DNA of 5,393 nucleotides, taken from the IMG/VR virus record IMGVR_UViG_2698536508_000029. The stretch is one strand, 5' to 3'. A program made the translations under genes and the position numbers. Position 1 is the first letter of the stretch, and every line of letters begins with the position of its first letter. The notes beneath the pieces were generated by a model. That model was not told where the DNA came from, did no database searches, and saw only the letters and a list, made by a program, of their open reading frames with translations. Below, piece after piece: positions 47 to 5,393 of the stretch. This DNA is from a virus (lineage: Duplodnaviria > Heunggongvirae > Uroviricota > Caudoviricetes).

Positions 47-148
47 GAAAAGTCCAGGCTGCAAAGTCTGGGCTTTTGTCGTATTAGGGCACGGTAAAGT
101 TTGGCTGTGCCCGTAAAAAATGGCTGGCTATACACAAGGAATGTGGCA

Positions 149-2453
<2,305 letters not shown>

Positions 2454-2457
<4 letters not shown>

Positions 2458-3524
2458 GATATTTCAATTTTGTCCCACTCCCGCCCGCGACTGTCCCTGT
2501 AACGCGCCGCCATTGAATCTGATTTATGCCCGAGAAGACGTTGAGCAAACTTATCGCCAATCTGATTCCGGTATAGCCTCGCCGACAGGCTGCGCAGTTC
2601 ATGGAATGTTGGCGGGTCTCCATCAAATGAGAGTCCAGATGCATTTCTCGCCTTTGTAAAATACTTAGATACTGTTTTCGGGGAAAGCGGTTCGTGATGC
2701 GTTGATGCAATTATTGTTTCACTGCCGCTGGCCTCCCTGCATTTCTGTAGTGTATCAGCCAATGAGATATTGAGCGCGTCAATCGTTAGCGTCAGCGGAA
2801 TGGCGAGCTTAGCCCCTGTTTTACCCTGCTCAATGTGAAGATGGTTGTCGTTTATGTCTGACCATTTCATTCTGCATAAATCGCCTACTCTCTGCCCTGT
2901 AACGACAGCCAAATCCATTGCCAGCCTCAGCCAGATTGGGAGCGGTTCGGCTGCATGGTAAATCGCGACATATTCATTAGCTGTCAGTCTTGAACGCCTT
3001 ACTTCTGATTTTGCTGTGCGGGTTGCTGTTACCGGATTCGTAGCCACATGCCCCTCGGCTATTGCCTCACGAAAAACGTCAACAAGGGTTGACCTGATTA
3101 ATTTTGCGGAAGCCGCTTTACCTTCTGCTACGTAGGTGTTTAGCATTGCTGCCACCTCTTTCGTTGATATGTCAGCGAGCGGTTTGTCCGGCAATTTTCT
3201 TCGGATTGCCCTGATTTTGCTGGCGTAGTCGAGTAGAGTTTTCGGCCTGATACCCCTCTCGCTGAGGATTGTTTCATATCGGTCAAGCCACGCATGAAGA
3301 GTGATTGCGTCAGCGCCTTTAATTCTGTCTATCAGTGACTCACGCCTGTTCCCGGATAGCAACTCAATATTGGCCTGTATTGCTTCAGTGATTGCTATCC
3401 TCCTGTCTCGGCCTAATCCGAACTCTTTACCCGTCCTTGGGTCCCTGTAGCAGTAATATCCATTGTTTCTTATATAAAGGTTAGGGGGTAAATCCCGGCG
3501 CTCATGACTTCGCCTTCTTCCCAT
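2454..3524 (-). CDS. int: Tyrosine site-specific integrase, lambda Int family, 356 aa
   Basis: Same length as lambda Int. N-terminal ~55 residues (MGRRRSHERRDLPPNLYIRNNGYYCYRDPRTGKEFGLGRDRRIAITEAIQANIEL) match lambda Int from memory. Catalytic signature present: R in GQRVGDLC, K in QGKTGAKLAIP, HELRSLSARL, LLGHKSD and the tyrosine in AARYRD. Confidence 0.95.
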
Positions 3525-3720
3525 TTCTGATCCTCTTCAAAAGGCTACTTGTTACTGGTCGATTTAAGTCAACCTTTACCGCTGATTCGTGGAACAGATA
3601 CTCTCTTCCATCCTTAACCGGAGGAGGGAATATCCTGCATTCGCGCACCCATCGACGAACTGTTTCAAGGCTTCTTGGGCGTCGCTGGCGTGCATTCCAC
3701 TCCTGAAGTGTCAAGTACAT
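3502..3720 (-). CDS. xis: Excisionase Xis, 72 aa
   Basis: MYLTLQEWNARQRRPRSLETVRRWVRECRIFPPPVKDGREYLFHESAVKVDLNRPVT..LLKRIRNGKKAKS is near-identical to lambda Xis from memory (differs at about 2 residues). The 3' end overlaps the int start by 23 bp, as in lambda. Confidence 0.95.
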   Translation of the reverse strand: MYLTLQEWNARQRRPRSLETVRRWVRECRIFPPPVKDGREYLFHESAVKVDLNRPVTSSLLKRIRNGKKAKS

Positions 3721-3746
3721 CGCAAAGTCTCCGCAATTACACGCAA
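3707..3746 (-). promoter_or_regulatory. cII-dependent pI-type promoter (TTGC-N6-TTGC at 3746..3733, weak -10 near the xis ATG)
   Basis: Minus strand reads TTGCGTGTAATTGC-GGAGACTTTGCGA-TGTACT. This is the tetrad repeat TTGC-N6-TTGC of cII-activated promoters, with a poor -10 13 nt downstream overlapping the xis start, so the transcript would begin inside xis and express int without xis. Confidence 0.55.
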
Positions 3747-3767
3747 GAAAAGCCGCATTGATGCGGC
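3744..3767 (-). terminator. Hairpin plus U-tract (candidate intrinsic terminator or attenuator) upstream of xis
   Basis: Minus strand GCCGCA-UCAA-UGCGGC (perfect 6-bp GC-rich stem, 4-nt loop) followed immediately by UUUUCUUG; the U-tract overlaps the first TTGC of the pI site. Confidence 0.45.
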
Positions 3768-3825
3768 AATGGTAGGTCTGGATATCTTGAGAAATGAACA
3801 GGCCTCATTGAGTGTGAGGCTGTGG

Positions 3826-4170
3826 TTAGTCCTTGCGTAGCTCGCTAATTCTTCTGTAAGTCTCTGGTGCTTTGTTTCCGTGTATCTTCATTTCAGACTT
3901 CAACAGAGCGACGAGGGAATCCCATTCGTTGAGGATGCCTTTGAATGCCGGAACGCGCTTTGCAACCTTGTCGAATGAATCTCTGATTTCTGGAATCTGC
4001 TCAACAAGTGCAACGCATCGCCGGAAGTCTGCTGCGTCATGTGGAGCGCCGAAGTGATGACCATAGATATTCTTTTTCAGTCCACATGCGATTGAGGCAA
4101 GAGTTGCGCTACTGATGCCAACATCGCCAGTCGATTGCCATTTCAAAACCTTCATAGCCAAATCTGACAT
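3826..4170 (-). CDS. Hypothetical phage accessory protein, 114 aa
   Basis: ORF with ATG at 4170 preceded by GGAGA 7 nt upstream; stop TAA at 3826-3828. No transmembrane segment evident; contains a His-rich segment GHHFGAPHDAADFRRC. I could not assign it to any family. Confidence 0.7.
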   Translation of the reverse strand: MSDLAMKVLKWQSTGDVGISSATLASIACGLKKNIYGHHFGAPHDAADFRRCVALVEQIPEIRDSFDKVAKRVPAFKGILNEWDSLVALLKSEMKIHGNKAPETYRRISELRKD

Positions 4171-4180
4171 TTCTTGTCTC

Positions 4181-4208
4181 CATAAAACAAAACCCGCCGT
4201 AGCGAGTT
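4181..4208 (-). terminator. Hairpin with UACG tetraloop plus U-tract, ending ~10 nt before the 114-aa gene's RBS
   Basis: Minus strand AACUCGC-UACG-GCGGGUU (7-bp stem including one G-U pair) followed by UUGUUUUAU, then GGAGA and the ATG at 4170. Confidence 0.4.
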
Positions 4209-4260
4209 CAGATAAAAGAAATCCCCGCGAGTGCGAGGATTGTTATTCATTGCCGATATT

Positions 4261-4286
4261 CACCTTTATCGCGAACACCTTTACCG
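4261..4286. repeat. Two direct repeats CACCTTTAYCG (4261-4271 and 4276-4286), 15-bp period
   Basis: 10 of 11 positions identical, separated by 4 bp, lying immediately 3' of the 80-aa ORF stop in the 118-bp non-coding spacer. Confidence 0.35.
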
Positions 4287-4288
4287 GT

Positions 4289-4531
4289 TTATCTCCTTTG
4301 CATGGCGCGTAATTTTTTCAGATGGTTCTCCTGCTCTGTTTCAGCCAGAATTTGTCGGTATTCCTGGTGATCGATCCGTTCAAACAGTTCATTAAAATCG
4401 TTTATTTTTACCGACTGTGTTCGCCCATCCATTCTTCTGTACAACACAGTGTTGTTTATGCAGCGAAGAATTTTTATCGGGTAGCCGGCGCTATCGGTGT
4501 ATATCTGACCACGTTGAATCAGAGCGAACAT
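4289..4531 (-). CDS. Hypothetical small phage protein, 80 aa (possibly DUF4222-like; unverified)
   Basis: ATG at 4531 with GGGGA 7 nt upstream; the tracked 98-aa form starts at a TTG with no RBS. Beta-rich-looking N-terminal part (IQRGQIYTDSAGYPIKILR...VLYRRMDGRTQSVKINDF) and a basic C-terminal tail HLKKLRAMQRR. Confidence 0.65.
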   Translation of the reverse strand: MFALIQRGQIYTDSAGYPIKILRCINNTVLYRRMDGRTQSVKINDFNELFERIDHQEYRQILAETEQENHLKKLRAMQRR

Positions 4532-4605
4532 TCCTTTATCCCCAGCGGAAAAGCGAATACAGAATAAATGCCACCGCGATTGCAACTCCTACAGCGGTGA
4601 ATGCT

Positions 4606-4956
4606 TCAGGCCAATTCATCATTCACTCCCTGCGGCGGTTCTGGTAGCAGCATCCAGTACAAGGCGTTCCCTAACCACGATAAAGTGCCGTCGCTCAACT
4701 CCACGTATTCCTCTTGTACCTGTCCTGCCATATACTCACCGTGCTTTGAATAAATTAAAATCCAATCATCTTGAGCGGGCATTCGCTCACTACAGCTTAT
4801 CCAACCACCCGGACTTACCGGAGAGTTGCCAGTCTTACGCATGGCAATCTCCACGATTTCAACCATATCTCCTGGCAGAATTTTACAAAGCTGGCCAAAG
4901 CGCCTCTGCTGCCTGGCATACTCGAGGATGTGCTCCAGTTTGGTTCGATTAATCAT
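4606..4956 (-). CDS. Phage protein with C-terminal DUF551-like domain, 116 aa
   Basis: ATG at 4956 preceded by AAGGGAG. The C-terminal half (GWISCSERMPAQDDWILIY...LSWLGNALYWMLLPEPP) fits the W-I...P...W...WMPLPEPP pattern I recall for DUF551 phage proteins. Start overlaps the stop of the upstream ORF (ATGA). Confidence 0.75.
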   Translation of the reverse strand: MINRTKLEHILEYARQQRRFGQLCKILPGDMVEIVEIAMRKTGNSPVSPGGWISCSERMPAQDDWILIYSKHGEYMAGQVQEEYVELSDGTLSWLGNALYWMLLPEPPQGVNDELA

Positions 4957-5393
4957 GATTTATCTCCCTTAAGCATGGCTGCACGGCAGGCGTTCCAGCC
5001 TCTCACCTCTGCAATAGCTGCAACAGCATCAACTGTGTACATGCTAAGAGGGTTAGGCATTGGTTTTTCTTCCGGTACTACTGGCGATGGCTGTTTGGCT
5101 TCTAAATCAGCAATTCTGTCAACTACGGCATCGACAGCATCTGAAAAACTGAAACAGTTACTCCACTCAGGCCTATCCCCGGTTGTTGCGAAGTACATAT
5201 CAGCTAAAGCAGACTCAGCATGGTCACGCTCGTTAATGAGTTGCTCTTCGCTTTTTGAGGTGTACTGGCAATAGCGGACTCTACCATTTGTTCTTTTTTC
5301 AAGCAGCCATCTGATGATATTTTTCCCTGAAGGCTGCTGGGGAGATATTCCCCAGACGATAGTGACGACGCTGACGATTGTAGAAAATCTCAT
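4953..5393 (-). CDS. Hypothetical phage protein, >=146 aa (possibly 5'-truncated by the window edge)
   Basis: Open minus-strand frame up to the window edge, where an ATG occupies 5391-5393. Pro/Glu-rich linker AKQPSPVVPEEKPMPNPLS precedes a C-terminal segment MYTVDAVAAIAEVRGWNACRAAMLKGDKS. The true start cannot be fixed because upstream sequence is missing. Confidence 0.6.
   Translation of the reverse strand: MRFSTIVSVVTIVWGISPQQPSGKNIIRWLLEKRTNGRVRYCQYTSKSEEQLINERDHAESALADMYFATTGDRPEWSNCFSFSDAVDAVVDRIADLEAKQPSPVVPEEKPMPNPLSMYTVDAVAAIAEVRGWNACRAAMLKGDKS

Follow-up and report, generated by a model that had tools for sequence, protein, structure and literature searches.

Between the stop codon of a DUF4222 gene and the ATG of a 114-aa ORF in a compact phage operon lies a spacer of 118 nucleotides (4171..4288) that carries both a short direct repeat and RNA hairpins, which raises the question of whether it is a regulatory element of its own or an ordinary piece of the operon. 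The window, i.e. the whole stretch of 5,393 nucleotides analyzed here, spans the junction between E. coli chromosome and the left end of a lambdoid prophage. On the chromosomal side, a DUF2138 yfaA-like gene (101..1837) is followed by a DUF1175 (yfaT-like) gene, whose 3' part contains the insertion site of the prophage (about 2390..2460). Just before the int stop at 2454, the host frame extends into A+T-rich sequence of the phage end. The prophage genes in the window all reside on the minus strand and comprise an ea22-like gene extending past the window end, a DUF551 gene (4956..4606), the DUF4222 gene (4289..4531, 80 aa, 243-nt CDS; Pfam DUF4222, E = 1.2e-15), the 114-aa ORF (3826..4170, start ATG 4170), xis (3720..3502) and int (3524..2454). 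The 114-aa protein is a homologue of 'ORF114' of phage 434 and is called ORF114 in the following; it is encoded upstream of xis and int, found no family in Pfam or NCBIfam, and as a query against genome contigs retrieved three loci only, which were too few for further use. For the DUF4222 gene two starts can be drawn, ATG 4531 (80 aa, the RefSeq choice) or TTG 4585 (98 aa), the longer form leaving 20 bp instead of 74 bp between it and the DUF551 gene.

An identical copy of the region is present in E. coli O26:H11 11368, where it makes up the far end of one leftward row of genes in which, counted from the repressor side, cIII, kil, gam, bet, exo, DUF1317, DUF1382, a TraR/DksA gene and the ea22-like gene come before xis and int. 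This is the layout of the lambda pL operon. RefSeq marks no feature in the spacer of O26:H11 11368, and the absence of an annotated ORF from 4171..4288 holds in the window as well. A scan of both strands of 3400..5393 returned no sigma-70-like promoter, just as had been noted before. Not accurate was the earlier statement that neighboring genes are 0-75 bp apart, because the gap between ORF114 and xis (3721..3825) measures 105 bp, and its minus strand encodes two further terminator-like hairpins (3820..3802 and 3767..3752). The hairpin at 3767..3752 takes the position of terminator t'-I in phage 434 records, just upstream of the xis pI/CII region.

Taken by its sequence, the 118-nt spacer is a composite of a 46-nt scar and the usual intergenic cassette of 72 nt (4242..4171), and the 72-nt gap alone is inside the range that was originally thought normal. 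Lambdoid phages have this cassette within the exo-xis portion of their leftward (pL) operon. The spacer is thus an ordinary one and its element is already known. The original prediction made a real but incomplete observation on something that had been described before.

The cassette encodes two hairpins, H1 and H2, both recovered by a terminator scan on the minus strand. H1 folds as AATCCTCGC-ACTC-GCGGGGATT (4241..4220, -13.1 kcal/mol) with nine pairs, five of them G-C, and a 4-nt loop, and is followed by the tail TCTTTTATCT (4219..4210), such that the whole unit spans 4210..4241. H2 consists of the stem-loop GAACTCGC-TACG-GCGGGTTT (4209..4190, -10.6 kcal/mol; eight pairs, four G-C, again a 4-nt loop) and the tail TGTTTTATGG (4189..4180), the whole unit spanning 4180..4209. 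U-tracts are situated immediately 3' of the stems and read (AUU)UCUUUUAU for H1 and (UUU)UGUUUUAU for H2, so that both elements have the stem-loop and U-tract of an intrinsic (Rho-independent) terminator on the transcribed strand. H2 is the UACG-loop hairpin with adjoining Shine-Dalgarno sequence that had been recognized at first sight. The Shine-Dalgarno sequence of ORF114, GGAG (4181..4178, minus strand), has its first two G in the end of the H2 tail and is separated from the ATG by the seven nucleotides ACAAGAA. H1 had been missed; it is the more stable of the two, has a U-tract of its own and is located 32 nt upstream of H2.

In 3400..5393 the terminator scan found four sites where 1.7 were expected, all of them on the transcribed strand and in two intergenic gaps. 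Folding of the minus-strand RNA, proposed earlier as a check, bore out the presence of structure: 141 nt gave -41.3 kcal/mol compared with -30.0 +/- 3.2 kcal/mol for shuffled sequences (z = -3.56). The two units resemble each other in having the form (C/A)CTCGC-NNNN-GCGGG(G/T) and a T-rich tail ending in TTTTAT at a distance of about 30 nt, and our impression is that they may have arisen by an old tandem duplication. The U-rich tail of H1, AUUUCUUUUAUC, also matches the complement of GAGACAAGAAAU at 10 of 12 positions (4211..4222 with 4169..4180), a stretch spanning the Shine-Dalgarno sequence and start codon of ORF114. Such a pairing would enclose H2 and mask the ribosome-binding site. We rejected it as a functional interaction because the sequence between the Shine-Dalgarno motif and the start codon varies with the downstream gene, and it is probably a chance match of a U-tract with a purine-rich stretch.

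BLAST searches against phage records led to annotated homologues. In the HK022 record (GenBank X51962), positions 2417..2445 are labeled 'tL4 terminator' and read aatcctcgcattcgcggggatttctttta; this feature covers H1, and H1 of the window is the same except for one loop base. That base (C to T) is also the only difference between the 66-nt cassettes of the window and HK022. In phage 434 (GenBank M60848), 2292..2322 carry the label 't-L4', the corresponding H1 (CCTCG-CACTGA-CGAGG) being distinguished by its 3' arm and by a loop of 6 nt. The cassette of lambda again differs from that of the window by one base (C to A in the H1 tail), the U-tract of H1 being ATTTATTTTAT in lambda and ATTTCTTTTAT in the window. 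For H2, the window, lambda, HK022 and 434 share one and the same sequence. In lambda, the two hairpins have been listed as t3 (H1) and t4 (H2) among terminators predicted with ARNold (Bloch et al., 2014; PMC4195576, Table 4); stems, loops and order are the same as in the window. They are situated between ea8.5 upstream and orf55 downstream, and the remnant bearing the direct repeat is missing there.

The likeness extends to genomic context. With exo, the ea22-like gene, the cassette, ORF114, xis and int following each other on one strand, position and orientation are those of the tL4 region. Like H1 of the window, tL4 of HK022 belongs to a leftward operon, precedes the genes ahead of xis and int, directly follows the stop of a 94-aa gene and directly precedes H2. 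The 94-aa gene upstream of the cassette is intact in HK022, whereas it is dead in the window. A further difference concerns orf55, which intervenes between the cassette and ORF114 in HK022 and 434 but is absent from the window, where ORF114 comes directly next. In HK022, 434 and lambda, orf55 is accompanied by its own hairpin (GCCGCCTGATGGCGG, then TTTTTTATTGGAGACAAGAA) between cassette and ORF114. The motif TTTTAT(T)GGAGA occurs at both orf55 boundaries and could have mediated loss or gain of this gene (loci L001 2208..2387 and L002 2081..2248 compared with 4171..4190 of the window). A literature search on termination at tL4 yielded predictions and annotations only, no paper on the phage terminator being reachable, and a literal search for the hairpin sequences returned one unrelated Yersinia paper only. 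The GenBank label 'tL4' may therefore itself be a sequence prediction only.

Intrinsic terminators inside antiterminated operons are familiar from lambda, with tL1, tL2, tL3 and t'I as examples. The elements of the window share with them a GC hairpin plus U-tract on the operon strand of a long transcription unit whose complete reading requires N or put, and a t'I-like hairpin is present in the window at 3767..3752. They differ in that they form a tandem pair, the second member of which abuts a ribosome-binding site. We consider it probable, at roughly 80%, that the spacer combines a dead gene tail with the lambdoid tL4 tandem intrinsic terminators of the leftward (pL) operon, and that these are read through by antitermination-modified RNA polymerase. 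Hairpin anatomy, orientation and homology to the tL4 region are seen directly, and from anatomy and homology we infer the following course of events. Unmodified RNA polymerase arriving from upstream would terminate at H1 or, failing that, at H2, and since the H2 stop point would lie right at the GGAG motif, terminated RNAs would be unable to serve for translation of ORF114. Polymerase modified by processive antitermination, which relies on N/nut in lambda and on put RNA in HK022, would read through into ORF114, xis and int; for this prophage, the system lies beyond the window. The hairpin pair would thereby make expression of the operon's distal part dependent on antitermination and shield xis and int (and ORF114) from stray upstream transcription. 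In the read-through mRNA, the hairpins would probably act as barriers to 3' exonucleases too.

Conservation was analyzed on sites that were gathered from IMG/VR contigs by downstream-gene anchors only (the ORF114 start and orf55), so that their collection was not biased towards hairpins. H2 resides directly upstream in 211 of the 287 anchored sites, and in most of the remaining ones orf55 with a hairpin of its own precedes ORF114. The H1 slot is filled by at least six different stems, all of which fold (-6.8 to -14.8 kcal/mol) and all of which are placed before the same tail, ATTTCTTTTATCT. Besides the canonical and the 434 type, these are ACCCGC-CGAGT-GCGGGT, CCGC-TTAAT-GCGG, ATCCCCGC-CCTC-GCGGGGAT and ACCTCG-CACCGT-CGAGGT. 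Of the two common H2 alleles, which are distinguished by a single pair, 99 sites have U.G and 87 have U-A. Among 63 distinct cassettes, 90.2% of the pair cells are paired as opposed to at most 55.8% when partners are slid, the value for H2 being 98.2%, and the U-tract tails are invariant or nearly so.

The covariation test that had been suggested gave a divided answer. The score of 0.119 exceeds the 0.096 obtained for shuffles and was reached by none of 500 shuffles; changes on both sides, on the other hand, affect only three pairs, no more than in shuffles. This modest formal covariation is attributable to the close relationship of the sequences. Hairpin-forming ability has been kept despite sequence change in both the H1 stems and the H2 alleles, with few compensatory double changes. 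Neither hairpin is indispensable, as a good H1 is lacking in about 16 of the 211 sites and a few loci contain H2 without a U-tract. In some loci, H1 alone precedes the ribosome-binding site.

The cassette together with its Shine-Dalgarno sequence is found in 2233 of 5426 complete E. coli genomes (41%), at 3300 places and up to five times per genome. It is also present in Stx phages, HK022, lambda, 434 and P22-like Salmonella phages. The only K-12-type carriers recognized among the matches listed are EMG2 and one O16:H48 strain, both of which we take to carry lambda. The flanks of the cassette are highly variable: 247 IMG/VR sites fall into about 31 upstream and 11 downstream flank clusters in 56 combinations. 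Upstream, homology breaks within the last codon or two, many unrelated genes ending in ..AATAA-CAATCC, and downstream it breaks between different genes just after GGAG.

This distribution bears on the question of whether the cassette is more than a terminator. It is conceivable, if unlikely, that it serves as a portable homologous crossover point by which the genes between exo and xis are shuffled, and/or as the source of an abundant Hfq-binding 3' fragment. In the stricter form of the first idea, which we hold to be rather improbable, the cassette would be kept mainly as a linker for homologous recombination in lambdoid gene swaps and termination would be incidental. The many flank combinations and the sharp breaks of homology at both borders are what such a linker would produce; the same pattern is, however, expected of any conserved functional intergenic element in mosaic phages. 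The phage-mosaicism literature, of which the work of Juhala et al. from 2000 is reportedly an example, deals with boundary or linker sequences at lambdoid module junctions. The cassette resembles them as a short conserved intergenic stretch with many alternative flanking genes but differs in its evident RNA-level function, provided by terminator hairpins and Shine-Dalgarno sequence, and a linker role is thus not needed to account for its conservation. Where H1 stems have been exchanged for other hairpins, it is likewise the ability to form a hairpin and not the sequence that has been preserved, which argues for selection on RNA structure and not on DNA identity. Moreover, the joint between DUF4222 and the remnant in the window itself was made outside the cassette and with almost no homology.

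The second idea, a small regulatory RNA in the form of a 3' UTR-derived fragment that ends at H1 or H2, with hairpin and U-tail acting as Hfq-binding module, strikes us as very improbable. A hairpin with U-tail is indeed the standard 3' module for Hfq, the cassette is very widespread, with several copies in some genomes, and prophages are rich in small RNAs. Yet the lack of a promoter in 3400..5393 makes a separate transcription unit unlikely, an Rfam scan of the whole window gave no match at E <= 1, including the families AgvB, AsxR and STnc100, and the described prophage small RNAs that were checked map to the late/lysis region and not to the exo-xis interval. In addition, a conserved single-stranded seed is missing, the conserved bases being those of stems and U-tracts only. 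The Pas small RNAs, which are located by lysis and structural genes, and AgvB and AsxR, located downstream of PR', were considered as counterparts and rejected. The small structured RNA that had been put forward as one possible nature of the spacer is therefore not supported.

We now turn from the terminators, our preferred reading of the cassette, to the remaining part of the spacer and to its direct repeat. Two 11-mers at a period of 15 bp are present as originally described: copy 1, CACCTTTATCG, at 4261-4271 and copy 2, CACCTTTACCG, at 4276-4286. The pattern is matched three times in the window when up to one mismatch is allowed, compared with 0.12 expected matches, and none of 200 shuffles reached three. 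The third match (AACCTTTACCG, one mismatch) is located at 3571..3581 within xis and is taken as chance. Read on the coding strand, copy 1 is CGATAAAGGTG and corresponds to the codons (A)IKV, and copy 2 is CGGTAAAGGTG and corresponds to (P)VKV. Both belong to a 46-nt remnant of the 3' end of the 94-aa gene (4243..4288, minus strand), which reads (K)PVKVFAIKVNIGNE-TAA and in which the frame and the stop codon TAA (4245..4243) are still intact. It matches the end of the HK022 ORF, ..GDKPVKVFAIKVNIDNE*, the translation of the old gene around the repeats being ..GDK PVKV F AIKV NIGNE*. The 94-aa gene is present in intact form in HK022, 933W, VT2-Sakai and many Stx phages. RefSeq names it 'ASCH domain-containing', a label resting on RefSeq naming since the Pfam ASCH match stays below threshold at E = 0.057 and no significant family was found in Pfam and NCBIfam. 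A 45-nt segment of the remnant is part of an intact ORF of about 94 aa (MANLQLAVKGEYFD...) in 57 of the 83 sites that carry it, and directly follows the DUF4222 stop in 22 of the 83, the window included. The 15-bp-period repeat is nothing but the leftover codons PVKV and AIKV of a dead gene tail, and the remnant presumably has no function of its own. The description of the spacer as non-coding holds for the window but fails for the 46 nt bearing the repeats in those 57 related sites. Conservation in homologous prophages, on which the original prediction was meant to stand or fall, is accordingly split: the hairpins are strongly conserved, while the repeats are kept only where they are coding.

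The origin of the scar can be read from the joint AAAGGA|GATAAACCGG, at which the end of the DUF4222 gene is fused to the remnant and which includes the last codon and the TAA stop of DUF4222 (4291..4289). In 63 of 80 DUF4222 relatives the gene ends in ..AAAAGGAAG-TAA (..ATGAAAAGGAAG-TAA-AGA-ATG), and a next gene (MNKAFERW...; MNKAFERWVHQRYGNRYDLTRDVDGFYCRE..) starts 3 nt past the stop in the arrangement AAGGAAG-TAA-AGA-ATG. The window-type copies (17 of 80) instead end in ..CAAAGGAGA-TAA-ACCGG, i.e. ..ATGCAAAGGAGA-TAA-ACCGGTAAAGG. The remnant follows this DUF4222 end in each of its 18 exact copies, found in 17 contigs and the window, so that it goes back to a single event. Illegitimate recombination or deletion fused the DUF4222 end, in a different frame, to the final 15 codons of the 94-aa 'ASCH' gene, whose GAT AAA now supplies the TAA stop of DUF4222, again out of frame. 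The gene MNKAFERWVHQRYGNRYDLTRDVDGFYCRE.. is missing from the lineage of the window and was presumably lost in the same deletion that made the spacer. A second, independent scar exists at the same cassette in related IMG/VR loci (..GTGGCTAACCTGCAACTTGCCGTTAAAGGTGAATAA-CAATCC; 29 or more sites), in which the 94-aa 'ASCH' gene has been cut to an 11-codon mini-ORF, MANLQLAVKGE*. This deletion apparently occurred between short repeats (..GGTGAATA..) near both gene ends.

Against this background, it is hardly credible that a phage or host protein, such as the 80-aa DUF4222 protein, recognizes the 11-mers as its operator or iteron. The repeat is statistically real in the window and the DNA bearing it is non-coding there. 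The same bases, however, form the in-frame 3' end of a neighboring gene in the sites in which the 94-aa ORF is intact and survive here as a deletion scar. The segment is missing from lambda, 434 and most other hairpin carriers, follows DUF4222 in one lineage only and from a single joint, and has no counterpart downstream of the 63 DUF4222 genes with the usual ending. A spacing of 15 bp would furthermore place the two copies on opposite faces of the helix, and neither strand of 3400..5393 offers a promoter-like site, so that the operator proposed originally is not supported. Equally poor are the prospects of a regulated attenuator or riboswitch, in which H1 or H2 would alternate between a terminator and an antiterminator fold under the control of an RNA element further upstream: the notion is apt in the loose sense that tandem terminator-like hairpins occur inside an operon whose relatives in lambda, HK022 and 434 rely on antitermination, and an extra weak hairpin is possible in the remnant part of the window RNA, but that hairpin falls in sequence that is coding in other phages, no leader ORF or peptide, alternative antiterminator fold or aptamer was found, the Rfam scan was empty, and the 5' flanks of H1 differ completely between carriers, with about 31 upstream clusters, which leaves no room for a conserved competing structure.

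In itself, the finding matters little, as the hairpins make up the long-annotated tL4 region of lambdoid phages and the 'repeat' is the tail of a dead gene. For annotation it is of relevance that both hairpins go unmarked in the lambda reference record and in RefSeq E. coli genomes, despite the presence of the cassette in 41% of complete E. coli genomes. For genome scans, the locus illustrates that an overlong spacer among otherwise tightly packed phage genes can consist of a normal intergenic cassette enlarged by a deletion scar, and that short repeats in such a spacer can be leftover codons.
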